A stretch of DNA of 64,000 bases, taken from Cyanidioschyzon merolae. Lineage: Eukaryota. Shown one piece after another: positions 26,471 to 62,400 of this stretch; position 1 is the first letter of the stretch; every line of letters begins with the position of its first letter. The stretch lies in the NCBI GenBank assembly GCA_000091205.1, contig AP006499.2, one strand, 5' to 3'. The notes below the pieces were generated by a model, which was given only the letters and a program-made list of their open reading frames with translations, did no database searches and had not been told where the DNA came from. Both the position numbers and the translations under genes were made by a program.

Positions 26471-26603
26471 CAAAACTGATGCTATGTGCTCCACATCGCC
26501 GCTTTGACCTGCGCAAGTTGTACCGTATTCGCAAATAGCGCTCAAAACTGATGCTTTGTGCTCCACATCGCCGCTTTGACCTGCGCAAGTTCTAGCGTAT
26601 TCG
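26471..26603. repeat. 72-bp tandem duplication (2 units)
   Basis: caaaactgatgct(a/t)tgtgctccacatcgccgctttgacctgcgcaagtt(g/c)ta(c/g)cgtattcg is repeated at 26471 and 26543. It lies in the intergenic region 3' of the CBS gene. Confidence 0.85.
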
Positions 26604-31919: not shown

Positions 31920-32130
31920 CGCCGGCTATCAATAGGTCTGGAGCTCCAGTCCCTCTGGATCCCTTACCAGCTGTCGAAGCATGTTGATGGAAGCGTTCAA
32001 GTCCCGATTTCGCTACTTCCGGCTGCTGTCAGAGCATGTCATGCATCGGCAAACGCTGCGACCTATGCTTCGCTTGCCATTTCCATGTTGTTTCTGTTCG
32101 ACTTCGATGTACGCGTCAAAGCGGTGACAT
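31920..32130 (-). mobile_element. TnpB/Fanzor-like relic, subfamily 2 (second copy)
   Basis: The minus strand reads RCHRFDAYIEVEQKQHGNGKRSIGRSVCRCMTCSDSSRK*RNRDLNASINMLRQ. The stop sits at the same codon position as in the 17.1k copy, and the nucleotides are homologous to 17040..17290. Confidence 0.5.
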
Positions 32131-35877: not shown

Positions 35878-36469
35878 TGCCCTGGCCTGTACTAAGATGC
35901 CGGATCCGCACCCAGACTGGTCAAGTACAACAGCATCAACGACCTAGTGATGACGCGAAGAGATGTCCGACGATAGAGCTGGCTGTGCCTGCTGCCTGGA
36001 CCCGCCAACATGAGGCAATACGCAGTCATCTCGAACAATGAAATACCATCGTGATTCACCAATTGCTCACAAAATGCATTCCCGATGTATCTATACAGCG
36101 CTTTCTTCTTACTGGACTGCTGAACCGTACGAGAGCAGTGCCTTGGTGCAGACGGAGATCCAATGACCACTCTCGTGGCCATTGATTTTTTTCATCGGAA
36201 TTTGTCAGCATGTGAGTACAGTGCCTCGACTGCGTTCTCAGCGATTCCCACGAACATTCGCGTAAAACGAAGCTGCTGGAGGCCCCGGAGAGCATGAATC
36301 ATTTCCGGATATTGATCGAGGCGCTCAAGTATCGGTGCAGAAGGTGCTTCGGCGCATTGTTGATAGCAAAGTCACACCATAGCGAGCCTCGCTTCCTCCA
36401 TTGCCTCTCCGTTTGGCGCTTGATTCGCTCTGCCCGACGCCATCTCGAGCATTCGTCTCTGTTTCACGC

Positions 36470-36900
36470 CTTGCTTATGCATCTGTTGGATATGCGATCC
36501 GTAAAACAGAAAATGCGCCACGACCATGGCGGGTACGTTTCCATATACCCACGCGCAGACGCGTCCCAGCATTTTTGACTGGCTGCCTGCTATCGGTATC
36601 GGATTATCCAGGTAAACGTGGTGCTTGAGACGCTGCCCCACAAAGTTAGCTCGCGTTAGCTCCTTGGGTATCTCGTCAGTTGCACCGGAAATCGTCTGAT
36701 ACTGATATCGACGTTGAACTCTCGATTCACGAACTCCTTGCGTCCGTTGTCGCTGGTGGAACGCACCAGTGCAACGATCCCCGGAACGCGAGCCCTCTGG
36801 GTCACAACAGTCTCGTCGTCATCCCGTCGCGGAAACCCCGCGTCTCGTCTATCTTTCCTCTTTCTTTTGTCGTATGTTCTTCTGTGCTCGATGATTGACA
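36470..36900 (-). mobile_element. TnpB/Fanzor-like relic, subfamily 1
   Basis: The minus ORF 36656..36946 reads ...VVTQRARVPGIVALVRSTSDNGRKEFVNREFNVDISIRRF (motif 36692..36736), aligning residue-for-residue with the 18.5k and 46.2k copies. The downstream ~230 nt (gatagcaggcagccagtcaaaaatgctgggacgcgtctgcgcgtgggtatatggaaacgtacccgccatggtcgtgg) is conserved at the nucleotide level with 46.1k, 21.5k and 18.6k. Confidence 0.55.
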
Positions 36901-39900
36901 AACAGCGGATTTTTCCGGTTTTCCGGCATCTGGCGATCACGGGCATCTAGGATCCCCGACTTTTACGTCCATACCGTCCGCTTGGATTGTTTATTTCTTC
37001 AAAATGAACGCACTTTGAACGCGTCTGCTATAAACCACGAGAAAGCATTTGATTACAGGAACCCAGGAATAAAACACATTTGAGGCGAAAGACGACTAGG
37101 TGCACCGGTGCTTGTGATGCGTGTATGTTGTCCTTGACGTATGAAAGCGAATCATAGCACATCGTCTCCTGCACTCGTTGTGCGCTATCTTGGGCACAGC
37201 AGGAGTGCATTCTCGTGCGCGACAGCTCGTCCAGCGCCATCGTCAAGCACCAAATGATGCAGGTTATCAGTCAACAACGCTTCTGACTCATTGCACAAGT
37301 CGGTGAATGCACATTTCTTGCCTCCGTCCAATCGAGACGGGTCGGCAACCCCAGCGCGGTTACAGGCGTCTTTGACAAAAATCGTTCCCGTGATCCACTT
37401 GAACAGTCACGTTTTATCTAAATGAAGCGTACAGAGTCTCGCTGGCGGCTCGATACGGTTCTCAGAGTGTCGAGACTCGGCTGCTCACGCCGTGATTCCT
37501 CTTCCTGGCATGTCGCCTAGCATTCAGGATTCCCGACTGCAGATGATGTCGAGCCCCGGAGACGATGAGCAGCAGCATCTGCTTTTCGTTTTTGGCATCG
37601 GGTCCGTCCGTCCTTTAAATTTAGCAGTACGGAGACGCCCTTGGAGGTCTTCAATCCAGGATCCAAGTCCGTTGCCAAGTCTTTCTCTTCATCTACGTCG
37701 AGCGGATGAACATAAGAATCGTTGCCCGAATGGGACCTCGGTTTTCACCAAATGCATGCAGAGCGATGTGTGGTCGACCTCCATTGCCCCAGTACACTCG
37801 TTTTCATTTCCTCCCTGTGAACGTGAAACCTTGAACGAACTCCGTCACAATGTTCCTCATGAAGTTCTTCGAATGCTGCATGCCTGCTCGCGGAGACCAG
37901 ACGTAACGGACTGAGGTCGGCATGCAACGCAGTCCAGTCCAGAAGTATCTACGGGCACATGTACAGGAACACGGAGTTGGATACGGTTCCCCGATCGAAC
38001 GGAAACCTTGAGGAGGATTGAGTGCTCGGATCCGGGATGGCAGTCTGGTTTGCTGTCGAGGGCTCTGTTCAGGAAAATCCAGAAGCGAAAGATGCAACGA
38101 AGGTAGCGATGACGTACCCAGCGCCTTCTGGATACGACATCCCGCCGTCCGCAACCGTGTGCAGCACGACCAGCGTGAACGATCTGAAGCGAACCTCGTT
38201 CTCGTAGCGACACCTCTCCTGAACTCGCTACCACCCTTAGCGCTTCCGTCACCAGTTCGTCATTTGCATATAGCGAAAGACCAAGAATCCCTTACATCAG
38301 TCCCTGCTCCTCTGGGTCAGCTAGGTGATGGTATCAAGCCCATAGGTTGCATTTCACGAAGCGCTCGAGATGGACCCGTTGATGGATTTTCAGGTTCGTT
38401 AGATGCACTTTGTCACCTGTCCTCTGGACGTTCCGCTAGAAAACATGACAAGCCTGCGAGTCAACCTTTCATCCGAAACGCATTAGCAACTGTTTGATTC
38501 TGAGATCGAACCGTTTCGCATCTAATATCCTGGGGAATCGTTGTGTTGTTCCACGACAGCTAGATCAAACTTCCAAGCGAATGTGGTGAGCTTCCAGACC
38601 GGCTTCGCGACCTTGTACGAAGTTTGGCTTGACCAGGCGCGTCTAGACAAGGGAAGCAAGGCGGACCTTTCTCGAGTGAGAAGCTACTCGACCTCAAAAA
38701 GGGCTCTGCAATGCTCCATTCGAAAGATTCTCAACGCCGTATTGGTATGTTTGAATTTGGAGGCAATAAAATTGTTATCACAGTGAGCTTCTTGGTCCTA
38801 TGGTTTTCCGGTCTTGTGCCTTTTCGCCCTCTCTTCGGAATAATCTTTCTCTTCTATGGCTGGTGATGTCTTCTCTGTCTCTATTACTTGGCGGGATTGT
38901 AAAGCCCCTATGCTCTACATCCGTTCTTTCCCTCGTGACTCACATATGCGCTGGGTCCACGATAGGACTGAGACTCGTCTTTTCTAATTCCATTTCCAAA
39001 AGTTCTCAAGTACCTCCTCATCACCTTCTCCGTCGCAAGCAAGCCCGCGGACTGAAGGGCACCGTCCCGCTCGCTCCTGTACACGAGCACAGAAGCAGCA
39101 GAGCAGCCAGGGCCGGTGAAGATGCTCGAGAACGCATTGTCGAAGTGAGGTGTCACGGATCCGAACAACTCGTCTAATGATCCATGAATTGAAACATAGC
39201 GCTCGAAAAAACATAAAAGACGCTTTCGAACGGGTTGAAGCGGGGAGGCTAGGCTGGCATGAAGCGTTGGTCAAAGCCAGTCTCCACCGGATGCTTCTTG
39301 ACCGCTTTTGATTCATGGACATCGATGTTGTCTAACAGCAGCACCGAAGCATGCGGGATGGAGAATCCACAAAGCGTACGTCGACGAAGGATGCGGTTTC
39401 GAGCATTCCCTTCCGTTTGGCGATTCGTAGGTAACGAAACGATAGCATCGCAGCTATCGCTGGTGCTGTCGCCGTGCCCGGTTGTCGCTTCTTAACGAAA
39501 AGCGGATTACCCCGCTTTGTGAACCCATAAACAGGTCAGCAGCTTCCCGTGAATGAGTCTTGTTGAGTGAGACAAGCATACGTCCCTCCTGTACAACGCG
39601 GTCGTGTTTCAGTACGAAATCGATATGGTGTTGGTCAATGCGTAATGGTCTCCCAAAGGAGCGTGCTTTTTGCTTCGTCAATCTGTGTCATTTATCACTG
39701 TACGGATCAACGATTCGCAAACTCTACATCCTGTAGCTTATCAGATAGTAATTCTCAGAGTATGCATATGGTTTGGAATGCATGGACGAGGCGAAAATCG
39801 TGTGGATAGAGCTTGATAAGTGCTGCTTTGGGTCCACGACTTTCTACGAGAAGCGTGTTTCATCCATCCGTTGATCGTAGAATGGCTTTCTTGCACACCA

Positions 39901-40811
39901 AAGACCTCTTCTCGCTAGCTTTCATTGACAGCACGGTCTTTCCGCGTCCTCTCTCAAGCCTCAGGGATGCAATCCTTTTGTTAAATACCTACCAGAAAAA
40001 CAAATTAAAACAGAAACGGCGTGCTGGTACGCATGTACCAGCATTCACTGCGCTCATTACATCACAGGTGGTAGCGCCGCCTCCCGGGCCTAGCACTCGG
40101 ATATGCGACCTACTCTCGCTCGAGTTCGATAAACGGCCAAGAGTCGGCTCTGTGTCATGGTTTCGCAAAACCGAGCACTTGTTGGATGCAGGTCCCGAAG
40201 CGCGAGCACTTGCGCCTCCCGCACATATCTTCGAGAAAAGAGCGGTCCACTGCAAGTCCAGTGCCAGAGAAACCAGCGCATGTTTTCCTGATACAAACAT
40301 TTCCTGGGGCGACTCGTTACCTAGATTCTAGTCATCTTTACGTGTGCCTCACTAGCGTCGGAGCAGAATCGATATGCCGAAAGTGCGCACGCTCTAGCAA
40401 AGCGTCAGCACAGCCGCCCCCTGCACGCAACGTGGACCCGAGTCACGAACACGGGTGCAGTGCCCTGTAGCAGCGAACTTTTTTGTTCCAGCCGTTGCCA
40501 CAGCTTCCGTTCCTACTACCGTAACGATTCCCCGGACTCCCGCGAATCTAATTCTTCCATAAGAAACTACCAGCAAAACGAAGCAATCACCCGCCCAGTC
40601 ATACGCAACGCTCGTTTGCGAACATACCCGGTGTTCCGCAGCGGAGTCCGAATGCCACCGCAGACGTCGCCGGTGCGGTAACGCACGTTCCATCGAATAC
40701 GCTGCTCCTTGCGGCTGCGCTGCTCGACTGGGTCCACGTACCGCTCTTGTTGCTGGTGCGGCATCGACAACTGGTACAGCTACCAGTGCTTTGGTTACTC
40801 GTTCCATCGCC

Positions 40812-43406
40812 ATGGCTTTTGGCACAGACGACACCTACGGCTCCACGACTCACGGGAAATATCGTCCCAAGTCCGATATGCGGTACGACGGGGCGGCTGC
40901 GCAGGTGTTCTTCACGTGTCTGCTGGGCCTGCTGTGCGTGAGTGTTACCTGGGGGCGCTGGCGGCACCTGATTCATCAACGAAAGGTTTCCGCCGAACAC
41001 GAACGAGCGCTATGTCCGTGTCGTGCGTGTCGCAGTCGTCGTCACGCTAAAATCGCTCAGAAACGGCGAAGCGAACGCTTGAAACGGCTAGTTGTGAACG
41101 GCGTGCTGCTGGGCCTCTGGCTCCTCTTCCTTTTCGCTGTAGTGTTCCTGTACCGCAGCGTTTCCGCGTCACTCGCTAACGAGACGCCATTCGACCCGTA
41201 CGAGGTTTTGGGAGTCTCCAGAAACGCTGATCGTGAGCAGATCGTCCGTGCGTACCGCAAACGCTCGCTTGAACTGCACCCAGATAAAAACCTGCAGAAT
41301 CCGAACTATCAACCCGAAGCGTTTGTGCGGTTGAACAAGGCGTACCGAGTGCTTACAGACCCCGTAGCTCTTGAAAACTACCAAAAGTACGGGAACCCTG
41401 ACGGATACCAAGGCACACGTTATGGGATCGCGTTGCCGAGTTGGCTCGTGGACCGGGGCACCCCGGTCCTCCTCGGCTATGCGCTGGTGTTGCTGGCGGG
41501 ACTGCCACTCGGGGTGGGTATGTGGTGGCGTCGACGGGCCCATCTGCTATCCGAGAGCGTTAGTCAAGAGACATATGCGCTGTTTGCAGAGTTTCTGGGC
41601 CAGCCAACGGCGATAAAGTTTCGCAACTTGCCCGAAGTCTACGGTGCAGCACTCGAGTTTGCAACCCGTACACCGTTCGAGGCTGAATGTGGCGATCGTG
41701 AGGCCATCAGTCTGCTCTGTCAAGCGCTTGAAACAGGTGGCCGGTTTGATCACCGCGAACAACGACTGTTTAATCGCGGACTCCCGCATTTTACGATGAA
41801 CAATGTGTTACTGCACGCGCACCTCGCTCGTATAGAGTTGGATCGTTTTCCCGTTGATATGACCCGTATGAAACAAAATGTGGAGGTTCTGCTTGCACAC
41901 GTGGATAGCATGATACCAGCGATGGTTGACGTGGCTGGTGCGACGCCTCGACCCGAGGTAATGCGGCGGTATCAGCGCGTCTTCTCCACAGGTGGCTATA
42001 TCGACCGGGTGCTGCGCATAATTCAACTCGAACAGAGTCTTTGTCAGGCGATGCTTCCGAGCGAAAGCGAGTTGCTCCAGTTGCCGTGGTTTGGGCTCAG
42101 CGAAGTCAAAGTTTGCGCAACAAGTCGCAGGTTCGGGGCCGATGGGATCCGCACGATCGCTGAGCTGCGGGAGCGTGTCTGGGAACCCGATGTGCTTGCG
42201 ATGCTGGCGAGCCAGGGGCCATCAGCCCTGTTCCCCATAGAGGCACCAGCAACGGCAGCGAAGCGGTGCATACGTCGTTCGGACCTCCAAGAAACGCGCG
42301 GCCGCCACGGAGCAGCAACGGAGGCATCCACAGCGCCGTGCGGGCTCGAGTCCCGGCTCGATACCGGCGCTGAGCGACTGTTGCGGTGCAACTGGGACGG
42401 CACTCGACTCCGATCTCTGTTGCGCATGTTCTCCGATGCTCAACTCGATGATATCCACCTGTTTTTGATTCGCTACCCCCGCAAAGTTCAATTGCAAGTA
42501 GTCGAGCCTTACGTCGTGGACCAGGATCGCGCTGGTGAAGCGGACCTGGTGCGCGATCCTCGCGTTCATGCTGGCGATATCACGACGCTGGAGGTTCATA
42601 TCCTCATCGAGCGTTTAGGCTGGCAAGAGATGCCGAATCGAACCACTTACTACCCGTGTTGCAGTCGATTGCCGTTTGACAAGAACGAGCACTGGTGGAT
42701 GATCGTCGGCGATCGGAAGATGAATTCCATCGTCGCTGTTCGGCGGCTTCATGCCCGGCAGGCTGTTCAACAGCAGCCGGGGTCTCGGCAAGCGGCTGCA
42801 TCTGCCGGGGAAGCAACAGATGCCCGGGACATGACGTGTACACCATCGCCGCCCACAAGCGCTTCGAGTCGCACCTCGACGCAAACTGATGCCTCTGACA
42901 CCGCCACAAGTGGCAGCAACAACATCGGCGATCGTGATGGAGCAAGTCCCGTAGCCGCATCCGGGGCTCGCGAGTACGCCCAGCCCACAGACAAGTGCGA
43001 CCTGGCTCCGTATATCCGACGAGAAGCGCTTTCGTACAGCGTTCAGTTCATGGCGCCGCCTCAGGTTGGTACCTGCAAGCTGGTCGTGCACGCCCTACCG
43101 GATTGTTATTTTGGGCTCAATCGCCATGTACAGTTGGATGTGGATATACACGAGCACAAGCCGCCTGAACCGGAAATGCATTATTTCGATCCGAGCGATC
43201 TTAGTGAGGACGACGATGACAGGCCCACTGGCCAAGCACGATCGCTTACCGCTGAGCATACGAGAGCAGTGCCAGCGTCGAATGGTGAACAGGGCGTCTC
43301 CAGTGAGCGCACGTCCACGCAACAGGTTCCAAATGATACCGAATCCGCAGAGGACACTGATTCGAGTGCTGATGACGCCTTCGACATCGACGGCGAAGCG
43401 GACTAG
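40812..43406 (+). CDS. SEC63: Sec63 (ER translocon-associated DnaJ protein) homolog
   Basis: The N-terminus MAFGTDDTYGSTTHGKYRPKSD..FFTCLLGLL parallels the Sec63 N-terminus. A luminal J-domain follows the TM segments (DPYEVLGVSRNADREQIVRAYRKRSLELHPDKN...YQKYGNPDG), then a long Brl/Sec63 domain, then an acidic C-terminal tail (SEDDDDRP...AEDTDSSADDAFDIDGEAD). The track start 40791 is TTG; the first ATG is 40812. Confidence 0.8.
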   Translation: MAFGTDDTYGSTTHGKYRPKSDMRYDGAAAQVFFTCLLGLLCVSVTWGRWRHLIHQRKVSAEHERALCPCRACRSRRHAKIAQKRRSERLKRLVVNGVLLGLWLLFLFAVVFLYRSVSASLANETPFDPYEVLGVSRNADREQIVRAYRKRSLELHPDKNLQNPNYQPEAFVRLNKAYRVLTDPVALENYQKYGNPDGYQGTRYGIALPSWLVDRGTPVLLGYALVLLAGLPLGVGMWWRRRAHLLSESVSQETYALFAEFLGQPTAIKFRNLPEVYGAALEFATRTPFEAECGDREAISLLCQALETGGRFDHREQRLFNRGLPHFTMNNVLLHAHLARIELDRFPVDMTRMKQNVEVLLAHVDSMIPAMVDVAGATPRPEVMRRYQRVFSTGGYIDRVLRIIQLEQSLCQAMLPSESELLQLPWFGLSEVKVCATSRRFGADGIRTIAELRERVWEPDVLAMLASQGPSALFPIEAPATAAKRCIRRSDLQETRGRHGAATEASTAPCGLESRLDTGAERLLRCNWDGTRLRSLLRMFSDAQLDDIHLFLIRYPRKVQLQVVEPYVVDQDRAGEADLVRDPRVHAGDITTLEVHILIERLGWQEMPNRTTYYPCCSRLPFDKNEHWWMIVGDRKMNSIVAVRRLHARQAVQQQPGSRQAAASAGEATDARDMTCTPSPPTSASSRTSTQTDASDTATSGSNNIGDRDGASPVAASGAREYAQPTDKCDLAPYIRREALSYSVQFMAPPQVGTCKLVVHALPDCYFGLNRHVQLDVDIHEHKPPEPEMHYFDPSDLSEDDDDRPTGQARSLTAEHTRAVPASNGEQGVSSERTSTQQVPNDTESAEDTDSSADDAFDIDGEAD

Positions 43407-43773
43407 ACGCACAACGCGATGGTGCTGCTGCATATATAGGCGGCATTCGCAACTGCGATCCAGTGACTGGTACGGACAGGATCTCACAGCCTGCATCGCG
43501 CGTGCTGAACATCACGGGCTCTGGTCGAGAGTGCACTCAGGGAGCGCCTAAACCAGGGACGAGGCGGAAGCGGGCACCTGTCAGCTGTTCGATGATCGCC
43601 CGTGGTCGTGAGAGCGCTCACGCGGAAACACCATGCTTTTCCCTAAAGTCAACGATAGTATTTAATGGAAATGCGCATTCATGTGGAGCGCTTTCAAGCA
43701 GCGCGCGTCATTGGCAGCACCACGGGCATGCGCGAGGCATCTCGCTCTCCGTCCAGACGCCCACGGACTCGAA

Positions 43774-45477
43774 TCAGAGCTCCCGAAAAGACTCCCCGAA
43801 GCTTTCTTGCGCCTCCATCATAACGGTACTGTCGTCGCCGGTGTCGGTGTCGGAGGTATTTCCTGTGTTAGGAATCCGACTTTGCAACGGGGCACTCGCA
43901 TCGTCATCATCAACGTCGATCATGTTTGGAATACTGGCATTTCGAAGCAATTGCGGATGAACGATTTGAGAGAGCGGACCCGTGGCAGTCACAGCGGCTG
44001 CGGCAACGTGTGCTCGTTGGTCATCTGCTCCGGCCGCTTTGGTATGCTCTGCGACACACGGCGTATGATAGGTGGATTCTACGGCATTACCGACGATCGT
44101 CGGTTTCAGTCGGATTGCAGGCGCATCTTCGGGCCTGTCTCGAGCCATGCCCTCGACCTGATTCCACATTGTCGCCAGTTTTTCCTTGGGCATGCTCGCA
44201 TACGCTCGCTCGTACGGTATTCCGTCCCGCTGTTGACTCGTTAATGCCGCGCGGAAGCGATCCGCCTCACTGGGGATCTCGTATCCTCCCGCATGGCCTC
44301 GTAGCATCGTCTCGCGTAAATCTGGATGGTAGTGCAGGATTTCCTCCCAGAAAAGCTGCCGCATCTGTGATGCAGTGAGCTGCTCGCGTTCGAAGAAGAA
44401 TTCCTCGGGCGGCAATGGGCTACCAGATACAATGGATTCCGGAGTATAGAGGCCTCTAAAATAAACATGCTGGAGTGCTTCCAGGGCTGTTAGGCGCTTG
44501 TTCGGATCAAACTGAAGCAGGTTTCGAAGCAGGTCCAATGCATCCGGGGGCGCGTCTGGGAACACTGTATCCAAGGGTTTCGGCGGTCGCGGCGGCAGCG
44601 AGCGCAGATGTTGTCTTACGCGCTGATTCCGCACCTTCGCAATCGACTCCTCATCCGGGGTACCGAGCAGCTTCACAATCAGCTCCAATTGCTCAAAGCT
44701 ATTCATACCGGGGAACAGGGGTTTTCCGCGATTCAAAAGTTCGGCGAAAATGCATCCCGCAGACCAGATATCGATCGCCGCTGAGTACTTTGACGAATAA
44801 CTCATGATCAGCTCTGGTGCACGATACCATCGCGTCGCCACATAATCCGTCCAGCACGCCATATCTTCTTGTTGGTTGTAGGCTAGTCGGGCGAGCCCAA
44901 AGTCGATCACCCTTAAATCACACAACTCATTAATCATGATGTTGTTCGGTTTTATATCGCGATGAAGCACGTTGCAGCTGTGCATGTAATGAAGCGCTTG
45001 CAATAGTTGATACATGAGCCATCGGATATGATCCTGCGATAACGGAATGGGTGCCCTCAGGACTCGATTCAAGTCCGCTGGCATCAACTCGAAAACCACG
45101 AACACGTCATCAAACGAGTCACGCTCCGAAGGTGCAAGAATCTCGCGGATGCTAATGATGTTTTCGTGGGAACGCAGGAGGCGCAGGAACCGAAGCTCCC
45201 GCAGGATGCGTACAGCTTCGGGAATCTCGTCGAAAACGCGGCGAATTCGTTTCACAGCCACTTTTTCCCCTGTCTGTATATCAATCGCTGAGCACACAAC
45301 CCCATAAGCACCTTCTCCGATGATTGACACGAACCTGTAACGGTTACCAATTAGGCGTGCATCAAAGAAAGCGCTGCGCGCTTCAGCCGGGCGGTGTGGC
45401 TGTGGCGCCTGACGCCTATCCCCTACGTTGTAACCATCCTGAACTCCTTGGGCATGGCTGTTGCGCAAGTCGCTCAT
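43774..45477 (-). CDS. mitogen-activated protein kinase (TDY activation-loop type) with extended C-terminal region
   Basis: IGEGAYGVVCSAID..KVAVKRI, HRDIKPNNIMI, DFGLAR, ACWTDYVATRWYRAPE (TDY dual-phosphorylation motif), DIWSAGCIFAELL. There is a true ATG at 45477..45475. Confidence 0.85.
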   Translation of the reverse strand: MSDLRNSHAQGVQDGYNVGDRRQAPQPHRPAEARSAFFDARLIGNRYRFVSIIGEGAYGVVCSAIDIQTGEKVAVKRIRRVFDEIPEAVRILRELRFLRLLRSHENIISIREILAPSERDSFDDVFVVFELMPADLNRVLRAPIPLSQDHIRWLMYQLLQALHYMHSCNVLHRDIKPNNIMINELCDLRVIDFGLARLAYNQQEDMACWTDYVATRWYRAPELIMSYSSKYSAAIDIWSAGCIFAELLNRGKPLFPGMNSFEQLELIVKLLGTPDEESIAKVRNQRVRQHLRSLPPRPPKPLDTVFPDAPPDALDLLRNLLQFDPNKRLTALEALQHVYFRGLYTPESIVSGSPLPPEEFFFEREQLTASQMRQLFWEEILHYHPDLRETMLRGHAGGYEIPSEADRFRAALTSQQRDGIPYERAYASMPKEKLATMWNQVEGMARDRPEDAPAIRLKPTIVGNAVESTYHTPCVAEHTKAAGADDQRAHVAAAAVTATGPLSQIVHPQLLRNASIPNMIDVDDDDASAPLQSRIPNTGNTSDTDTGDDSTVMMEAQESFGESFREL

Positions 45478-46019
45478 CGGCGCCTTGAGCAGTCACAACA
45501 AGCTGTCGCACGCCCGACCCCAGCTCCGACAACGCCTCCGTCTGTCTTTGAACGTGTGCGGCGGACCGGCCAGGACTCGCTAGCCCGCAGCACGTTACAG
45601 AGCCGTGTAAAGGCAGAGCACAACACGCAACGCCCTACTCTAGCCTAGAGTATGAAGTGCAGACGAAACACCGCCACCTTTTCAACCTTGCGCCGCTTTC
45701 TTGCAAGGTTTACCTGCATGCAGGGACACGTCAGTGCCGCCAGCGACAAGGATGCGTGCGCGCGTCGTGACGATGCGTGCGCTGTCACGCCTAATCCCGC
45801 GCCGGGGCCGCTGGCCGCCTTCGAGGCCTCCGGCGCAAATCGAATCGCGCTGAGCGGCTGACGCAGCGCAGCGCTGCGCAGCGCAGGGGTGGGCTTGTGC
45901 GGTGCGCGACTGCGCAAATGCGCTCGTGGAGTGGGGGGTTGTGGAGCTGCGGCCCCGCCGCACTTCGCTGCGTTGCGCGTATCGAGCCGACGTCCCCGTG
46001 CCGTCCCCGCCATGCTCTG

Positions 46020-46330
46020 GTCAGGAAAACGAACACTGTTCCACGGCCATGGAAGGTATCTATACACCCACGCACGGATGCCTGCCAGCCGTTTTGTTTC
46101 GACCGGCCGCCTGCGATCAGTTTTGTTTTATCAGGGGACAGTGCGAGCCTGAGAGACAGCCCAAGAAAGTCGGTTCTCATCAACAGCGCCTATCGTCGGA
46201 TATTGATAGTGGCATTGAAGTCCCGATTCACAAAGTCCATTCGTGCGGTTCCGCTGGTGGAACGCACGAGTACCAGGATTGCGAGAACTCTTGTCCTCAG
46301 TGCCGTTTAGTGCTCTGCTCGCTCTTCGTA
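46020..46330 (-). mobile_element. TnpB/Fanzor-like relic, subfamily 1
   Basis: The minus strand reads *TALRTRVLAILVLVRSTSGTARMDFVNRDFNATINIRR* (motif ~46198..46240; an upstream in-frame stop limits the coding part to ~45 aa). The downstream sequence (gatcgcaggcggccggtcgaaacaaaacggctggcaggcatccgtgcgtgggtgtatagataccttccatggccgtgg) is homologous to the 36.5k copy. It lies ~550 bp upstream of the MAPK start. Confidence 0.55.
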
Positions 46331-47648
46331 CTTTTTTATCGCCGAAGCGTTCGGCCGGCTTTGCTCCATCTCGACGTTCTCAAATGTTCAATACAGCGCA
46401 ACCTCTGCACTTCCTATTTTTGAAACTGAAAGCACTCTTTCTTATGCCATTGTTTGAAGACCTTGCCGGAGAGAGAGGCACGAGCGCAAGAAAGACGACA
46501 TATGTCCGAGTGTGTCGCCATGTGCTGAACGCTTCACCAATTCGCCCAGTGCAGCGATTATAACGTTTCACGATAGAAACCACGTCTTCGATTGGCATGA
46601 ACCAGGAAGCGTATGGAGGAATGATACGCGGCTCTACCCCTGATAGAATCGGAAACAGCTCGAATGCAAGGGGAATGTTATAACGCCACCTTATCTAGTA
46701 GAAGGACGTCGTCGGACGTCAGGGAGAGGTCTTCAGTGATTCGATAAAGTGATTTGTGCTGCAGTATGAGCCTTCTCTACGAGCGAGACTTAGGCTGGCA
46801 AATGAATCCACTGCAGATAGAACAGATGATGATGTCGTCGTTCCCTTTGAGCTCGATCTTGCATGCAACCGGTGTCCTGCTCCTCGAATACCCATACACG
46901 CTCCGTCTGTCTCGTTTGAAGCAAGTCACATCGACTGGAAAAAAACAAACCGATGTTCCTCTTCTTCATGTCGATCGCTGCGTTCCAGGAAAGCTGTGGC
47001 AGTTTCGATTTCGATGGAAGATGGCCGTGCGTGAACTAGGACTTTTTTGCGACTGTATATTCGTGTTTCCATGATTACACGAACGAGCTCTTGAGAAACA
47101 GAGACGCCCGCAGTAAATAGAATCGACGCTTTTGTTTTCCGTAAGGTGTTCAACGGGTCGTTTCTACACCATTGACCGCAAGAAGTCTTTCAGAGTATCG
47201 GCATTTGATGCGGAGCGCGTGTACTCTTTTCTATGAACATTCCTCAGTCATCAGGGTACTGTGCAACGACTGACCTGAAGGAGGAATGCCATCCTCCATG
47301 CACTGCTCAGTCAAGTATATATATCCTAAAGGCAATTCGTCTACGATCTATGCTGTACATTGCATCGATCTTTCGATCTCTCGCGCTGTACTGCGAAAAA
47401 AGCATTCGATCACATGCGGCGATGACGGAATAAAATAGAACTGAACGACCAGAAAAGGCACTTTTCACGCGACTCCGAACTAGCAGGTAAAGCGTGCCGG
47501 TACGCCTGCGCAGCCGATTGGCGCTCGAATTCCTTGCCGCTGCGCAGCACTGCGTCTGAGTAGGTCGTTGTGCTGCAAGGCTGCGGCCTTTCTCGAGGGT
47601 GTGCTGCAGAAACCGCCTTGACGGTGGCTAGGGGCGACAGGACCGTGT

Positions 47649-48596
47649 ATGTTCCTGAACGTTCAAGTCTGTGCCCGTTCGGTTACTCCCAAGCCGGCAG
47701 CGTCTCTCGCATTGCTCGTTTTGCAGTCTCAGCGAGGGCCTCTCCCTGCAGACGCCGCACGGTGTCGGCGTCAGTTTCCGACCTCGCAAACGAGGGTCTG
47801 TCGCTTGCGAATGGCCTCACCAGTGAAGAAGCTCAACTTGGAGGATCTTAGAACGAAACTCATACGTCAGGAGGAGACCATCATCTTCGCGCTGATAGAG
47901 AGAGCGCAATTCAAACACAACGCAGTAATCTACGAGAAAAATGGGCCGCTGTTTCGCATACCGGGCTTTACCGGCTCATTCCTCGACTATCTTCTGGTGG
48001 AGACTGAACGACTACACGCCAAAGTGCGGCGCTACACAGCCCCTGACGAGCACGCCTTCTTCCCAAACCAGTTACCGCAACCGATACTCCCGCCGTTGGA
48101 CTACGAGCAGGTGCTCCATCCGAACGACATCAATGTGAATCACAAAATCATGCAAGTCTACGTCCACGAGATCGTCAACCGCCTCACAGAAGAGGGCGAC
48201 GATCTCAACTATGGCTCATCCTGCGTGAATGATGTGGCCTGCCTACAGGCTTTGAGTAAGCGCATTCATTACGGAAAATTCGTAGCCGAGGCCAAGTACC
48301 AAGCCAATAAGGAACAGTATCAACCTCTAATCGAGCGACGCGATGCGGCCGCTATTGAGCAGCTGCTCACGGATCGGGCGGTTGAAGAGAAGCTGCTGCG
48401 ACGAATCGAGATGAAAGCCGCCACCTACGGCCGAGAGGTCGAGGTTGGTCAACTCCAACGATGGCGCACGGGATCGGATCGGTTTGGTGACGAGGTCCAG
48501 CAGTTTCCACACCTGTTAGCGAACATCTATGAACATTATGTCATACCGCTGACAAAAGAGGTTGAGGTTTTGTATATGCTGCAGCGATGGCCCTAG
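47649..48596 (+). CDS. chorismate mutase (eukaryotic AroQ type) with N-terminal extension (probable transit peptide)
   Basis: LNLEDLRTKLIRQEETIIFALIERAQF, YTAPDEHAFFPNQLP, VNHKIMQVYVHEIVNRLTEEGDD and RIHYGKFVAEAKYQAN match yeast/plant chorismate mutase. There is a true ATG at 47649. The first 54 aa are S/R/A-rich with no acidic residues before the MASPVKK core. Confidence 0.8.
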   Translation: MFLNVQVCARSVTPKPAASLALLVLQSQRGPLPADAARCRRQFPTSQTRVCRLRMASPVKKLNLEDLRTKLIRQEETIIFALIERAQFKHNAVIYEKNGPLFRIPGFTGSFLDYLLVETERLHAKVRRYTAPDEHAFFPNQLPQPILPPLDYEQVLHPNDINVNHKIMQVYVHEIVNRLTEEGDDLNYGSSCVNDVACLQALSKRIHYGKFVAEAKYQANKEQYQPLIERRDAAAIEQLLTDRAVEEKLLRRIEMKAATYGREVEVGQLQRWRTGSDRFGDEVQQFPHLLANIYEHYVIPLTKEVEVLYMLQRWP

Positions 48597-52766: not shown

Positions 52767-53100
52767 CACCCGATAGCGACGTGTTGCTCGCGTTGTACGC
52801 AGGTTACGCGTCACTCGTTGAACGCGAGTCTGTGGCAGCGCAACGAGTTCGGGGTCGAGGCGACCGCTAGCGTCTATGGAGTGCGTTCCTCGCGGCAGGT
52901 AGCTGTGGTATGAACAATGGTGACGGATACAGCTCCGAGCGTTGCCACTTCACCTGGCGTGTATACCAGCTTTATTTTTAGAACCTCATGGAAACGCGCC
53001 CAGTCATAGGCGTATGCAAGGCGTGCATGAGCGCCCGGACGGCAAACACTAGCGCGCAACGCTTTATATACCAAATTTCGTGCTAATTGTTGCGAGTCGC

Positions 53101-53185
53101 GGTAGTATAGCTCAGTCGGTTAGAGCGTGCGGCTGTTAAGACAGTAGAAACCGCAAGGTCGAGAGTTCAAGCCTCTCTACTACCG
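53101..53185 (+). tRNA. tRNA-Asn (anticodon GTT) with 11-nt intron after the anticodon loop
   Basis: Manual fold: acceptor GGTAGTA/TACTACC (7 bp), U8, D-arm GCTC-AGTCGGTTA-GAGC, anticodon stem TGCGG/CCGCA with loop CTGTTAA (identical to the canonical Asn loop), ~11 extra nt (gacagtagaaa) between loop and 3' stem, variable AGGTC, T-arm GAGAG-TTCAAGC-CTCTC, discriminator G. A T6 run at 53191 serves as the Pol III terminator. Confidence 0.8.
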
Positions 53186-54619
53186 TCAGCTTTTTTCCTC
53201 CGCCAAAGTTCGAGAATCTTGCGTGAAATATATAAGCTGCAGAATTTCGACGTCAAAAGAAAGCCTTCCCTACATGAAGCCGCCCTTCGCTGAGCGATAG
53301 TGTATGCGCTGCCCGCTAACGTCGTGGATGTTCTACCACAGAGACCACGCTCTCAACAAAGAGGTCGTGCACGAGCACCATGTCGTCACGACTGGCGACG
53401 AGAACGTGAGTGCGAGTCCAAGACAGCAGGCTTCGTGCGCCACTACAGCGCATACGACCGGTGCACTTGGGCTGTTGAGGTCGCGTTGTGCTCGCCCGGT
53501 CTCCTGACTCTGGACTTGTTTGACCTCAGCTTTTGACGGGGCGCGACGGTTTTCGGCTGCAGAACCTGGAAACCCCCTCAACCGTCCGACAGATTCATGG
53601 GTTTTTCAATTGGACAAGACGCGCTTCGGGGCCACGTGCGCAAGAGACAAAAGCGCTTGCCTCGCATATCATTACTGCAAAGCTACCGGATGCAGCAGAG
53701 GTATGTGCATGCTTTATCGTTACAGGCTGCAGTCCGTAATATGCTTCTCGCGTTTCAAGCATTCAATGGAGTTGCCCCATAGAACGCCTAAACCTCCCCG
53801 TCACTGCAGCGGATACGACATTGCTGGTATATAGACGACACCTGGTTAGTGCACCGTCGGCTTCTGTGAGACCTGCATGCCTCGGGCCTCCGAGTGGCAA
53901 GCGCTTCCACGCAGAACGTTCAGTGCCTGCGCTGGGCAGTGCATGAAAAAGCGGGGCGATTGCTCTTGAACTTCCCGCATTGTGTCACGCTTCGGGTTGC
54001 TTTCACGTCGCTCCGGGAAAACGATTCCCATGTGACAACAGTTATCGCTCATGCGGTGTACAGAACGAATTTCATCGAATGACTTGTGTTTGCATCTATG
54101 AGCTACCGCTGCTCAAGCCGCGGACCAGTGCGCTAGTCGCAGGCATGTGTCGCTCACACCGGATCCGTGTCTGTCACGATCGATATGGACGAGTCCGGAT
54201 TCCTGCCATACAAAAAGAATCTTGGTAAACGAACCACGACTCTAGATGGCATGGTATCCGCTCATGACTTGCCACTTTTACTGCGCATGCATCTGTAGCG
54301 CATACGTCGTTCCCCAGCTACCTGTGTTTGGCGAGGTCCCGCGGCAAGCTAGAATATCGTTCAGTGACCAGCAGGTTCCGAGAGGGCACGGGCCGCCTGC
54401 TGCCGGTCGTTGTGGCCTCGGTCTGAGCTCGGAATCCTTCCGTCGACAAAGAGAACGGACGCGCATGCGGCTCGAAAGACCCTCCATGACAAGCGCCTGG
54501 GATGCAACATGTTTCCATGGTATGAGGAACCTGCAAGTCACAGCGCTTCTTGAGAGTGGCGACATACAAGGACGAACCCCCATTCGCAGTTCAAAAAAGC
54601 TATTGCATGGTTTACGTTC

Positions 54620-55999: not shown

Positions 56000-56437
56000 A
56001 GAGAGGGATACAAAGCAGTCTCCTCGTGAAACGAGGTGTCAGCTGCGTAACCAGGAAGAAACAGGTCCTGCTTGAGCACAGGTCACCGCAACGAGAGTAC
56101 AAAGAACGTTGGCTGAAACCCGCCGCGTGTAGGGCGTGTGCTCGCCCCCGATCTCAACGACGGCGGGGCAACGCAGTGACCTCAGGGCGCGCGCGCGCAC
56201 GCCCCAGGGCGTGGCTGGAGAGCTCGACCGCGGGTGTGGACCCCCGCCGGGGTGCACGCGCCCGAATCCCAGATCAGGGCGGTTGGTTAAGCGGGTGCAC
56301 GCTCGGCGCAGCGCGTCGGGATGCTGCCGTCTGAGTCTTAAAACTGGAATTTATTGGATATTTTGGTCGTGCGTCGGCTTCAGCAGGCGCCGGCGGCCGC
56401 GGCACACCTCAACCATCCCAGATACGGCATCGTGAGC

Positions 56438-57433
56438 GCGCGTCCGATAAAGGTGGAATCCTGAGATGTTCGCTTTGTTCTTGGCTTGCGATTTACGTTA
56501 CGAACGATTCCCAGAGGTACAGCGCCAGCATTCGGATCGCAGCAATAGGGGATGACGGATTCATACGTAGTTTCAGGATGATCGGTCATCGTTTCGAAAT
56601 GGCTCTTTCGAATCTCTTTCAGAGGGAACACGCAACGATACCACACTGAGGATGATCCTCGATGCCCTCGAACAACGGCTCCTAAAATAACCGATCTCAT
56701 CATCCAATGCATACGTACAAGCCTCCACGCCTCTCTTTTCCTCAGGTGCAGCACGATCGAATCACCCATGCCTCAAGGTATCGATCCGTAGGTTATGAGC
56801 GCAATCGTAGGCGCACCAATTTGGACTGCTGCATTACCATGGGGAAACAGTATTCGACATCGCTTCCCTAGGGCTGGCCTGTGACCTCGTTGCGGACGTT
56901 CGCTGAATTTGGCACGTTCAATAGTCGATTCGATTCGATTCGATTCGAATCGAATGACAAATCCGGCTCCATCTGCGGCTATCGACGAAACGGCAATCGA
57001 CTGCAGCACGGGAGGTGCCACGGGGTATGGGCTGCGGGGCTCCCGTGCCTTGCGTTTGCATGGAAATGATCATTGGGTCGGTCTCGGATCGTCCGTTGCG
57101 TTGGCATCCAGCGGATACTGCGTCACTGCGGTGCACGGAAAGCGGGTGCCTGGGTCGATATGTACGGACCTGATCTCCAGCCTGGATTTTCATCCTGGTA
57201 CGTGTTTCTTCCTGATGAACATCGCGTGCCGCAGACCCTCGTCTCGTCGCGAAACAGCGAAGAACAGAGGCTGAATACGATAGAGAAGAAGAAGACAAGC
57301 GAAGCGTAGATCGCAACGACCGCTTGTGCTTGCAATGGATGCACAGCAGCTGGAAGCCGCGTCATTGCGTCGATAACGCTGCTATCAACAATCCTTCGAC
57401 TGCTCAAGATGGAGTTGGTGCAAAAAGGGAGAC
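56438..57433. repeat. ~995-bp direct repeat, copy A (>98% identical to copy B)
   Basis: From cgcgtccgataaaggtggaatcctgagatgttcgc... to ...ctcaagatggagttgg. It contains a (CGATT)n/(GATTC)n microsatellite at ~56925-56960 (more units than copy B) and a 129-aa minus ORF duplicated in copy B. Confidence 0.9.
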
Positions 57434-57860
57434 CAGCAGATTGAAAGCCGGAGATTCGAGCGAGGAAAAGGACGGAGTTCCAGATAAAGCACGCAAATGC
57501 TTGTGTTGATCACTGAAAAAGAAAGCGACTCACACCCTATAGTCTCCATCCGTTTTTAGGGAGTTGATCGGTTCGGTTTTCTGTCTGACATGGGTGCAAA
57601 ACCCCAAATATGTGACCTATGCGTTTTGAAAAGCCGACATACTTCACGGCCTCCTGCGGTGTGCAACTGCAGCTGCAGCACCTGCGGCTCGGTATCGCAA
57701 GCGGCATTCTACTCAGAGGCCGCCATGTAACGCGTCGCGGTGCGTCCAGCCGGTGGGCGGTGTCCTGGCTGAGTCGCAGCGCCGGGCGTAGCTGACGTCG
57801 AGTGCGAGCCTGGTGGTAGCCAGCGACTTCCTCCGTACCAGCACGAGGCACTGACAGGTC

Positions 57861-58853
57861 ATGTTCGTGGCACTCGGACCTGCCAAACTAGGCCTTGACC
57901 GGCGGCTTGGAGCCCCTCGAGTTTCAAACCGGTTGAGGACGTTAAGGCTGTCGTTCGCGGAACGCGTGGAGCGCAGCTTGCGGAGAAAGTTTCCTGCCGA
58001 CTCGGTCGCCCGTGTAATCCAAGCTTGGCGACAAATTCAAAGAGGCGAGATGCTTCGCGAGGATCAGAGGGAGGCACATAGCTATATTCGAGGACTTCGC
58101 ACTGCCAGGTTTTTTGATAACGCCGAGTTTCCCTGGGCGGCTGCTCTCGAGAGGAACTGGGAGACCATCCGCGACGAACTGCGGCACTGGGAAACGCGAC
58201 GCCAGGAGCTCGAGGCGCTTGGCTCGCAAGTTTGGGTTACTGCAGCTCGAGCGGAGGCCGTTGCCTATGGCCCGGACTGGCGCACCCTGGTTCTGCAGGA
58301 TAGACGCTGGCATGACGACAACTGCAAGCTCTTCACCAAAACGACAAGAATTATTCGGGATTGCGGTGTGCCGTCAGTCGAGGCTTTTTTTGCCAGGCAA
58401 GCACCCCAGAGCGGCATCAAGCTTCATTCTGACGGATGCAACTTTATTTTGACAGCGCATTTGGCACTTCAGGCACCGCCACGACAGTCATGGATTGCAG
58501 TTGGCGGCGAGCGCCGTTTCTGGGAAGACGGGAAGGTGCTCATTTTCGATACCAGCTATCTCCATGAAACATATAACGAGAGTCAAGACTCTGATCGGTA
58601 CGTTCTTTTGTTGCGTTTCTGGCATCCTGAAACAACTAGAGTAGAGCGCGAGGCCTTGCAGTACATTTTTGACGTGGTCGACAACCCGTCGTGGGTCGAT
58701 CGAGACCTGAATGATCTGGGAGCAGGTCTCGATTCCTCGCTCGTAGAAGATTGGATACAGCGTCCGAATAGGAAGGCGCGGCGTGGCACCGGCGGCAAAG
58801 ACCGCAAGGACCGCACGTTAAATCCGCCCAGGGGTTTCGGTCGCTCGGAATGA
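57861..58853 (+). CDS. aspartyl/asparaginyl beta-hydroxylase-like (2OG-Fe(II) oxygenase, AspH/Asp_Arg_Hydrox family) protein
   Basis: FFDNAEFPWAAALERNWETIRDEL, RRWHDDNC and KLHSDGCNFILTAHLALQAPP resemble the conserved AspH catalytic-domain motifs (Fe-binding His in HSD...H). There is a true ATG at 57861. Confidence 0.65.
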   Translation: MFVALGPAKLGLDRRLGAPRVSNRLRTLRLSFAERVERSLRRKFPADSVARVIQAWRQIQRGEMLREDQREAHSYIRGLRTARFFDNAEFPWAAALERNWETIRDELRHWETRRQELEALGSQVWVTAARAEAVAYGPDWRTLVLQDRRWHDDNCKLFTKTTRIIRDCGVPSVEAFFARQAPQSGIKLHSDGCNFILTAHLALQAPPRQSWIAVGGERRFWEDGKVLIFDTSYLHETYNESQDSDRYVLLLRFWHPETTRVEREALQYIFDVVDNPSWVDRDLNDLGAGLDSSLVEDWIQRPNRKARRGTGGKDRKDRTLNPPRGFGRSE

Positions 58854-59755: not shown

Positions 59756-60745
59756 CGCGTCCGATAAAGGTGGAATCCTGAGATGTTCGCTTTGCTCTTG
59801 GCTTGCGATTTACGTTACGAACGATTCCCAGAGGTACAGCGCCAGCATTCGGATCGCAGCAATAGGGGATGACGGATTCATACGTAGTTTCAGGATGATC
59901 GGTCATCGTTTCGAAATGGCTCTTTCGAATCTCTTTCAGAGGGAACACGCAACGATACCACACTGAGGATGATCCTCGATGACCTCGAATAACGGCTCCT
60001 AAAATAACCGATCTCATCATCCAATGCATACGTACAAGCCTCCACGCCTCTCTTTTCCTCAGGTGCAGCACGATCGAATCACCCATGCCTCAAGGTATCG
60101 ATCCGTAGGTTATGAGCGCAATCGTAGGCGCACCAATTTGGACTGCTGCATTGCCATGGGGAAACAGTATTCGACATCGCTTCCCTAGGGCTGGCCTGCG
60201 ACCTCGTTGCGGACGTTCGCTGAATTTGGCACGTTCAATAGTCGATTCGATTCGATTCGATTCGAATGACAAATCCGGCTCCATCTGCGGCTATCGACGA
60301 AACGGCAATCGACTGCAGCACGGGAGGTGCCACGGGGTATGCGCTGCGGGGCTCCCGTGCCTTGCGTTTGCATGGAAATGATCATTGGGTCGGTCTCGGA
60401 TCGTCCGTTGCGTTGGCATCCAGCGGATACTGCGTCACTGCGGTGCACGGAAAGCGGGTGCCTGGGTCGATATGTACGGACCTGATCTCCAGCCTGGATT
60501 TTCATCCTGGTACGTGTTTCTTCCTAATGAACATCGCGTGCCGCAGACCCTCGTCTCGTCGCGAAACAGCGAAGTACAGAGGCTGAAGACGATAGAGAAG
60601 AAGAAGACAAGCGAAGCGTAGATCGCAACGACCGCTTGTGCTTGCAATGGATGCACAGCAGCTGGAAGCCGCGTCATTTCGTCGATAACGCTGCTATCAA
60701 CAATCCTTCGACTGCTCAAGATGGAGTTGGAGCGAAAAGAGAGAC
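59756..60745. repeat. ~990-bp direct repeat, copy B
   Basis: Collinear with 56438..57433 with a handful of substitutions and a shorter (GATTC)n array (~60240-60265). The flanks outside the repeats are unrelated. Confidence 0.9.
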
Positions 60746-62124: not shown

Positions 62125-62400
62125 AACTTTATGGTTAAAATATCCAACAATATACCCCAAATGCTCGCGGACAGCGTTCGCAGAGGCAATACCCGATGAA
62201 CAGAAATATCACTAAAATATACTTTCCTCCACCTTATGGGAAAGAGTGTACCAACATTCCGACTCGATATGCGCGCGGACAGCGTCCCCCGGAGGCGATT
62301 CCCGATGAACAGGTACATCACAAAAATATACATTCCAGAACTTTATGGAAAAGTATACCCAGAATTGGACTCCAAATGCGCGCGCAATCGATCCAGCGGG
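62125..62400. repeat. ~108-bp tandem repeat, ~2.6 units
   Basis: Units begin ctttatgg..aaa at ~62125, ~62233 and ~62341. The shared core is gcgcggacagcgt.c.c.gaggc.at.cccgatgaaca....atcac.aaaatata. It sits ~400 bp upstream of the CHD gene ATG. Confidence 0.8.

Follow-up and report, generated by a model that had tools for sequence, protein, structure and literature searches.

Does the remnant of a transposon lying upstream of a MAP kinase gene act as the promoter of that gene? The question is raised by a 64,000-nucleotide stretch of Cyanidioschyzon merolae contig AP006499.2 (assembly GCA_000091205.1; the whole stretch is called the window below), in which a Fanzor-like relic, here named relic D, lies in the spacer between the MAP kinase gene (MAPK) and the divergently transcribed chorismate mutase gene (CM). 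An earlier reading made from the letters alone (the sequence-only reading) had proposed that the ends of this relic and of a second copy, copy C, upstream of an inositol monophosphatase gene (IMPase) may have been co-opted as promoter sequence. Our analysis indicates, with a probability of roughly 0.8, that relic D is an ordinary dead Fanzor1 transposon remnant between divergent genes and not the MAPK promoter. The transcript-like contig ends at 45693-45824 lie outside relic D, whose terminus is at 46025, the element shows no sign of constraint, and its co-orientation with MAPK is automatic. Start sites outside the module were what the sequence-only reading had itself named as refuting co-option, so the claim falls at MAPK and should not be carried forward; the relic is a routine remnant of a family reported in 2013. 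The anatomy of the locus is corrected as well: the element is four times longer than had been flagged, and both the likely MAPK start region and a GC-rich block lie outside it.

MAPK transcripts appear to start outside the element

Contigs covering the locus were gathered by exact look-up of the MAPK protein and the representative of its 90% cluster. Fifteen long metagenome contigs (10-131 kb) are collinear with the window over the whole MAPK/CM spacer at 99.3-99.5% identity. Ten other contigs, from at least eight samples, stop or turn into unrelated sequence just upstream of MAPK. These transcript-like contigs come from the Joint Genome Institute (JGI; 3300050363, 3300050366, 3300050367, 3300050377, 3300050379, 3300050748 and 3300057248) and from Logan assemblies (SRR29605740, SRR29604940 and SRR29605863). 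They end at 45693/45696, 45707, 45707, 45708, 45718, 45723, 45724, 45734 and 45824, with a shorter contig at 45629. Most of the ends fall at 45707-45734, that is, 290-320 bp beyond the terminus of relic D, all those at 45693-45824 are 200-330 bp outside it, and none of the ten contigs reaches relic D or passes 45824. The sequences joined upstream vary by contig (one is formate-tetrahydrofolate ligase (FTHFS) coding sequence), L114 has an Illumina adapter (…AGACGTGTGCTCTTCCGATCT) joined straight to position 45723, and the far ends of two of the contigs lie 52-120 bp upstream of the DnaJ ATG. Assemblies of transcripts from a compact genome look like this. We infer that the contig ends mark MAPK transcription starts, as surrogate evidence and not as cap analysis of gene expression; MAPK transcripts appear to start at about 45707-45734, immediately downstream of the GC-rich block, which would make their 5' untranslated part ~230-257 nt long.

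This block (45721-46020) is the highest-GC 300 bp of the window, about 4 standard deviations above the mean. It had been described as CpG-rich and of low complexity. The high G+C content holds, whereas CpG enrichment does not: the observed/expected (o/e) ratio of 1.25 compares with a window mean of 1.16 +/- 0.17 and stands at the 70th percentile, short of a CpG island. The only low-complexity parts are (CGCAG)5, at 45862-45886, and some short palindromes, and apart from this pentanucleotide run the block has no copies elsewhere in the sequences compared. As in vertebrate-type CpG-island promoters, a GC-rich block lies directly upstream of the start region; unlike in those, the surrounding genome is not depleted in CpG, so that the ratio of the block is no island signal and only its G+C is high.

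Comparison with related genomes bears on the origin of the block. Cyanidiococcus yangmingshanensis (L102) and a second lineage (L103/L104), whose MAPK is 70% identical at the protein level, share the gene order ADSL-CM-MAPK-DnaJ (ADSL, adenylosuccinate lyase) with the window. The CM/MAPK divergent spacers of these two relatives measure 1951 and 2004 bp, and their coding DNA is 72-74% identical to that of the window. In these spacers neither blastn against the window nor tblastn for Fanzor homology found any match. G+C peaks at -300 to -500 from the MAPK ATG in all three, at 0.67/0.69 and 0.62/0.67 in the relatives (6500-6700 in both L102 and L104) and 0.73/0.72 in the window (45777-45977), in sequence that is itself not alignable. 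A weakly conserved GCAT[GC]C…GCA motif lies at the putative MAPK start region. Because the position of the G+C peak is kept where Fanzor homology is undetectable, the GC block is likely MAPK's own upstream region, independent of relic D, with a putative promoter role. Immediately upstream of the plastid sigma-factor gene, which starts at 55999, there is a second strongly GC-rich block (about 56000-56450, up to 68% GC).

The element is as variable as other spacer DNA

Variable sites were counted across ten population contigs. The relic module has 7 in 237 bp (29.5/kb), the rest of the element 20 in 993 bp and the whole of element D 28 in 1356 bp (20.6/kb). The MAPK coding sequence (14 in 1704 bp, 8.2/kb) and its 5' untranslated region (5'UTR; 2 in 243 bp) together have 16 in 1947 bp (8.2/kb). 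Element D is more polymorphic than coding sequence plus 5'UTR (Fisher P=0.003) and does not differ from other spacer DNA (6 in 300 bp for the GC block, 16/kb for the DnaJ-MAPK 3' spacer and 16-31/kb for other non-coding DNA), so that purifying selection on it is not seen; the diversity data exclude strong constraint only. The 268 bp between the 5' end of relic D and the CM ATG (47381-47648) are the most polymorphic stretch of the locus (9 sites, about 34/kb). The CM coding sequence is invariant only because the contigs were chosen for an identical CM protein.

Identity, decay and extent of relic D

That a Fanzor-like relic lies here is confirmed by three kinds of comparison. In tblastn of Fanzor family proteins against the window, relic D was matched at 46151-46387 (E=1e-9), and the match widens to 46043-46387 when more queries, proteins that keep the full C-terminal tail, are used. 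A six-frame search of the window with a hidden Markov model (HMM) of the C-terminal module found 46178-46345 (independent E-value, i-E, 3e-12). In a self-comparison of the window, 46181-46302 repeats at 18460-18570, 21682-21741 and 36691-36778. On the minus strand the region reads …TALRTRVLAILVLVRSTSGTARMDFVNRDFNATINIRR (asterisk, stop), and the translation of the relic ends in …MDFVNRDFNATINIRR with a RuvC-III motif. This motif (…NRD.NAA.NI… near the C-terminus) is found in the other three copies of the window (A, B and C) as well, and FVNRDFN.AINIRR is common to all four; the RuvC-I (G.DPG) and RuvC-II (DE[FY]RTS) motifs and an intact frame are missing from relic D. The match to a 752-aa relative is limited to residues ~669-752. 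Relic D is a dead gene fragment and not a gene, because only the last ~85 codons remain, with two in-frame stops and a deletion of ~7 codons. Pfam found no family on the open reading frames (ORFs) of the region, and an Rfam scan of the whole window returned one tRNA only and nothing at relic D or the GC block.

An alignment of copies A, B and D with three metagenome copies (L026, L046 and L079) places the 3' terminus of relic D, …GTTCGTTTTC, at about 46025, give or take ten bases (46015-46025). From there to the MAPK ATG are 548 bp, with both on the minus strand and the 3' end aimed at MAPK, as the sequence-only reading had it (co-oriented, about 550 bp). It had also given the relic as 46020-46330, of which the start stands and the end does not, as homology runs on to 47364-47380. 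By blastn, window 46177-47380 is matched by L079 12193-13384 at 69-71% identity, and 46444-47364 similarly by L046 2054-2966 (+2988-3471) and L026 2075-2988; in each of these three contigs the matched 5' part adjoins a D-type 3' module. The 5' boundary thus falls at 47364-47380, 268 bp from the CM ATG, and the whole of element D (46025-47380, about 1.35 kb) fills 62% of the 2171-bp MAPK/CM spacer, ATG to ATG. All 15 population contigs spanning the element carry it. In blastx against the Fanzor family the 5' part had no match, and it has no similarity to copy C either. Relic D is thus a composite unit, formed by ~940 bp of unrelated non-coding DNA and ~420 bp of the right end of an older Fanzor subfamily.

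A member of a Fanzor1 group described in C. merolae

The translated copy C, used as query, recovered 79 relatives, among which several are intact proteins (676-752 aa). Built from 15 of these homologues, a profile matched the Parasitella parasitica Fanzor1 in the PDB (9cf0, E=2.1e-10) across the RuvC-I, II and III regions, and the Guillardia theta Fanzor1 (9cer) at E=0.08. The profile was needed: a single-sequence PDB search with an intact relative gave no Fanzor match, and Pfam gave only a sub-threshold Cas12f1-like_TNB match. One Fanzor1 family, CMe-1A, has been reported in C. merolae, with ~150 copies ~80% identical to a ~3 kb consensus, no inverted repeats and no recognisable target duplications, together with TE-N2_CMe, a short relative that shares one end, reportedly the 5' end (Bao & Jurka 2013, PMC3627910). 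Relic D is a member of this CMe-1 group, its link to CMe-1A resting on the published description and not on the Repbase consensus. The family of the window and CMe-1A share the genome, a protein with RuvC-I, II and III, a full length of ~3 kb (copy C is ~3.1 kb), the lack of visible terminal inverted repeats, many old copies (~65-80% identical) and the existence of short non-autonomous relatives that keep one end. TE-N2_CMe differs from relic D in sharing the 5' and not the 3' end, and the 940 bp at the 5' side of relic D match neither copy C nor the Fanzor ORF. The 3' terminus of D, A and B differs from that of copy C, which suggests that the former represent an older subfamily. The four modules had been assigned to a single subfamily, a grouping that fails because the termini place copies C and D in different ones; further faint modules also lie in the window.

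In Fanzor and TnpB systems the right end of the element carries the guide-RNA scaffold and is transcribed outward, and in Spizellomyces there are ORF-less 'ghost' elements in which the ends and the guide-RNA region are kept (Saito et al. 2023, PMC10432273). The relic D unit resembles these ghosts in having lost the ORF and retained an end (PMC10432273). Its 3' module, like that of SpuFz1, consists of the RuvC-III C-terminus and a short non-coding stretch up to the terminus, and the corresponding C-type stretch, ~60-65 nt with two hairpins, is comparable to the 75-nt SpuFz1 scaffold. Differences from SpuFz1 and from 9cf0 are that the guide RNA is here deduced from DNA alone, that no inverted repeats were found and that relic D is a pseudogene fragment lacking RuvC-I and II. 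By analogy, the 3' end of relic D may be a guide-RNA/right-end region. We read relic D as the right-hand terminus of an ancient, inactive Fanzor1 copy, a ~1.35 kb composite, 'ghost-like' derivative. Its 3' module stays recognisable because it encodes the most conserved motif (RuvC-III) and because, in Fanzor/TnpB elements, both the guide-RNA scaffold and the transposon end are found at this end.

Co-orientation probably reflects where the elements lie

The sequence-only reading took it as a signal that two of the four modules are promoter-proximal to co-oriented genes. Under reasonable nulls the probability of at least two of four is 0.69-0.86, which is not beyond chance. A larger sample was obtained by scanning metagenome contigs with the family profile (80 loci, about half on Cyanidioschyzon-like contigs with flanks), locating the 3' modules, calling the flanking ORFs, removing Fanzor-related ORFs and collapsing loci with the same neighbour; the sample amounts to ~37 metagenome loci, not the genome. 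Ten neighbours checked by Pfam are ordinary host genes, including UFD1, RCC1, FtsZ, ketoacyl reductase, lactate/malate dehydrogenase, histidyl-tRNA synthetase and glycerol-3-phosphate dehydrogenase.

The gene 3' of the element is co-oriented in 27 of 37 unique loci (27:10; ORFs >=150 aa; nominal P=0.008), or in 24 of 36 (24:12) with ORFs >=180 aa (P roughly 0.07, our own binomial estimate). Among the 17 loci with both neighbours known, 8 are divergent (C and D included), 3 tandem co-oriented, 5 tandem anti-oriented and 1 convergent. An association between element orientation and genes shows in the overall count (27:10), but no bias is seen in tandem spacers (3 co- vs 5 anti-oriented, P=0.73) or in the D-type subfamily (~4-6 co-oriented vs 5 convergent, ~1:1, at distances of 277-2079 bp). 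The excess is best explained by the location of the elements in divergent spacers and not by their orientation, because between divergent genes the 3' end faces a co-oriented gene whichever way the element lies. Co-orientation with the downstream gene is thus automatic there, and must be tested only in tandem spacers.

For C-type elements, 20-21 loci are co-oriented and 5-7 convergent. Once the ends are corrected, the distance from the 3' terminus to co-oriented ATGs is 19-440 bp (median ~100), and that from the 5' end of the element to divergent ATGs is 83-845 bp (median ~270). An apparent result that 3' ends are far nearer genes than 5' ends was rejected as an artefact of the first end estimates (anchor+212; N-terminal anchor-330): the C-type terminus (…GAAAGGCGTT) lies ~50 nt beyond its first estimate and the 5' end ~750 bp beyond its own, at ~1050-1090 bp upstream of the N-terminal anchor, and the corrected ends give a length of ~3 kb, as reported in 2013. 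Elements in divergent spacers often leave only ~100-300 bp on each side. The loci with both neighbours known include L023, L028, L050, L076, L079, L083 and copies C and D of the window.

The right end of copy C coincides with a transcript-like end at IMPase

Copy C nearly fills the 3353 bp that separate IMPase from a divergent CBS-domain gene (ATG 24723). Its RuvC-I, RuvC-II (VDEFRTS) and RuvC-III (FVNRDFNAAINI) motifs follow each other in the right order within 21607-23658; the frame is broken once by a shift near 22500 and once by a stop at 21838. The copy had been placed ~100 bp upstream of the IMPase ATG, and correctly so: it ends at 21471-21473, 100 bp from the ATG at 21371. Two contigs of 1170 and 1171 bp (JGI 3300055175 and Logan SRR29605730; L096/L097) cover 21472/21471 to 20302. 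They begin at the final 1-2 nt (TT) of the conserved terminus of copy C and contain none of the repeated terminus sequence, which speaks against an assembly break caused by the repeat. IMPase would have a 5'UTR of 100 nt, with the start-proximal region inside copy C, and any sequence driving IMPase transcription within ~50 bp upstream of the contig start would lie inside the element. The two contigs are possibly one library, effectively n=1, and so a lead rather than a result. An exact look-up of the CBS-domain gene product, meant for mapping transcript ends against the 5' end of copy C, gave no match.

The right end of copy C consists of a TAG stop, a GGCGGG…CTCGCC hairpin, ACTACTGTACAC, a second hairpin and the terminus. 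C-type right ends (window 21471-21545, minus strand; L022, L029, L055, L069, L076, L083 and others) span ~60-65 nt with two hairpins, the terminal one in two variants, CGTTCGA-CTT-TCGAACG or CGTTTTTC-TTTT-GAAAGGCG, which both pair in differing registers. RNAalifold found almost no consensus among C-type right ends, and no Rfam family matched the stretch. The arrangement recalls a guide-RNA scaffold or right end. Just beyond the C-type terminus, 12-15 nt are weakly G/T-rich and similar among loci.

Promoters derived from transposons are known from the ends of long terminal repeat (LTR) elements, miniature inverted-repeat transposable elements (MITEs) or short interspersed nuclear elements (SINEs) exapted as host gene start sites. 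Both MAPK and IMPase resemble these in having an element end upstream of, and co-oriented with, a host gene, and at IMPase the transcript-like 5' end is also the element terminus; at MAPK, in contrast, the start region is ~300 bp outside an element without sign of constraint. The general idea of co-option survives in part, in the IMPase contigs and in the median of ~100 bp for C-type termini. C-type right ends might repeatedly lie exactly at the starts of co-oriented housekeeping genes, as at IMPase; the elements would then either home to divergent promoter regions or have a guide-RNA-bearing right end that doubles as a start-site-proximal promoter, with relic D an old, displaced example. We regard this proposal as unlikely. 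If the promoter option were true, promoters throughout an ultra-compact eukaryotic genome would have been rewired by a transposon that encodes an RNA-guided nuclease. At IMPase-type copies the right end may contribute to neighbouring promoters. The IMPase copy is the one concrete lead, and the residual novelty lies in how C-type right ends relate to host start sites.

Alternative explanations

Several points weigh against reading relic D as a dead remnant that plays no part in the MAPK promoter. The short contigs are judged metatranscriptomic from their behaviour and from the project description, the library type being unconfirmed in the records; the Yellowstone C. merolae project (Lemonade Creek) comprises 12 metagenomes and many poly-A and RiboMinus metatranscriptomes (PMC11662350). 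Their ends border on a 72% GC block, where coverage could drop for that reason too, and one contig extends to 45824. A TATA-like motif, TATAGATA, at ~46060, 35-40 bp inside the terminus of relic D, could drive rare or condition-specific outward transcription. That related species lack the relic says little about when it inserted, as neutral DNA is saturated at that divergence. The counts of variable sites are small and the GC block itself is not reduced in diversity, so that the test is blind to weak regulatory constraint. If the contig ends near 45.7 kb were assembly or coverage artefacts of the GC block, the true MAPK start could lie in relic D, and it is so that the ends adjoin a GC-rich block with palindromes and that some of these contigs are 12-23 kb long. 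The adapter fused at 45723, the joining of at least four contigs there to different unrelated sequences (FTHFS coding sequence among them), the metagenomic assemblies from the same sites that cross the block unbroken and the other contig ends upstream of the DnaJ ATG make such an artefact improbable. Alternatively, the 3' end of relic D might keep an outward promoter that yields a long-5'UTR MAPK isoform or a non-coding RNA in unsampled conditions. The D-type termini of A, B, D, L026 and L056 share a conserved TATA-like 'GTATA[T/G]A', which in the relic is ~35 bp inside the end, and the outward transcription of Fanzor/TnpB right ends for guide RNAs (PMC10432273) fits this; yet 0 of 10 transcript-like contigs pass 45824 and the relic is old and mutated, and we give the idea very little credence.

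Relic D could also act at a distance, as an enhancer-like element or upstream activating sequence (UAS), or as a spacer or insulator, for MAPK and/or CM without providing a start site. Its share of their common upstream region, its 5' end near the CM ATG and its presence in every spanning population contig would agree with such a role, but its polymorphism is at spacer level, the syntenic spacers of equal length in the two relatives hold no counterpart in sequence or composition, and other D-type copies have no preference for gene starts, and we think it improbable. A further proposal, not exclusive of the preferred one, is that co-option is true of the C-type subfamily, with right ends supplying start-site-proximal promoters as at IMPase. 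The IMPase contigs, starting without repeated sequence at the last 1-2 nt of the terminus (…GAAAGGCG|TT), the short distances to co-oriented real host ATGs and the 20-21 to 5-7 excess speak for it. This excess, however, vanishes given the enrichment in divergent spacers (tandem 3:5; P=0.05-0.17 vs a length-weighted null of 0.64), the counts shift with the ORF cut-off, and the 5' ends of the elements are near divergent gene starts as well, where closeness may reflect no more than very short original spacers; with the IMPase contigs perhaps from one library, the proposal is doubtful, if worth keeping in view. Under the preferred reading, that of a dead Fanzor1 remnant, relic D would sit passively in the MAPK/CM spacer, as divergent spacers may tolerate or attract insertions; any element there would necessarily point its 3' end at a co-oriented gene, and MAPK transcription would start ~300 bp beyond the relic, downstream of the gene's own GC-rich upstream region.

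Other copies, genes and repeats of the window

The coordinates of the features discussed are collected in Table 1.

Table 1. Elements, genes and putative regulatory regions of the window discussed in the text
Feature	Position	Strand	Description
Relic D, 3' module	46025-46390	minus	last ~85 Fanzor1 codons, C-terminal tail remnant and element 3' terminus, as read from tblastn, HMM, DNA repeats and terminus alignment
Relic D, 5' part	46391-47380	minus	non-coding; adjoins the 3' module in the three other copies compared (~70% identity)
GC-rich block	45721-46020	.	71.7% GC, CpG o/e 1.25; between relic D terminus and transcript ends
Putative MAPK transcription start region	45693-45734	minus	cluster of transcript-like contig 5' ends; 5'UTR ~216-257 nt
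MAP kinase gene (MAPK)	43774-45477	minus	product identical to C. merolae 10D BAM82104.1; ATG at 45477
Chorismate mutase gene (CM)	47649-48596	plus	product identical to BAM82105.1; divergent from MAPK; ATG 47649
Inositol monophosphatase gene (IMPase)	20514-21371	minus	ATG at 21371
Copy A	18441-18767	plus	3' module only, D-type terminus; 3' end faces IMPase 3' end (convergent)
Copy B	36509-38714	minus	full-length Fanzor1 relic, heavily decayed (24-30% identical to family proteins), D-type 3' terminus
Copy B'	36290-36436	minus	second C-terminal fragment beside copy B
Copy C	21471-24560	minus	near full-length Fanzor1 pseudogene element; 3' terminus …GAAAGGCGTT at 21471-21480

The host is a eukaryote with a very compact, almost intron-free genome, and C. 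merolae supports homologous gene targeting. The sigma-factor and aspartyl-hydroxylase products are also identical to C. merolae 10D proteins (BAM82107 and BAM82108, respectively), and the other long intron-free ORFs around the relic encode a DnaJ/Sec63 protein and adenylosuccinate lyase.

Copy B is a decayed full-length example of the older D-type subfamily. One of the transcript-like contigs, L098 (JGI 3300050366), maps to 36748-45696, from the MAPK start region through DnaJ and into ~4 kb without long ORFs; this ORF-poor part includes most of relic B, and the contig stops within its conserved FVNREFN core. If L098 is derived from RNA, the region of relic B is transcribed.

Faint RuvC-III-like fragments were found on the minus strand by the C-terminal-module HMM at 7144-7194, 17083-17127, 31959-32072 and 36290-36436, with the sequences NRD*NAVINIFR, LNRDLNAPIHILR, RNRDLNASINMLR (after C.C..C) and HRYLSASINIRK. 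Their positions match those of a separate family of short DNA repeats (7051-7259, 17082-17239, 31965-32130 and 57298-57507) and are probably relics of another Fanzor/TnpB-like subfamily.

Unusual tRNA genes are a known feature of C. merolae. The sole tRNA of the window (53100-53187, plus strand, 85-88 nt, Rfam 60.9 bits) is assigned the anticodon 'tta' (stop) by ARAGORN; it is probably intron-containing, with the anticodon mis-read. A direct repeat of 1072 bp (56439-57510 and 59756-60821, 95.6% identity) flanks the aspartyl beta-hydroxylase-like gene (57861-58853). Tandem duplications are found at 9858-10126 (a ~69-bp unit four times, 92-96% identity, adjoining the start of a long ORF at 10139-11950), at 26471-26603 (a 72-bp unit twice, 95% identity) and at 62161-62384 (a ~108-bp unit twice, 77% identity), the last of them inside the ORF at 62212-62862.

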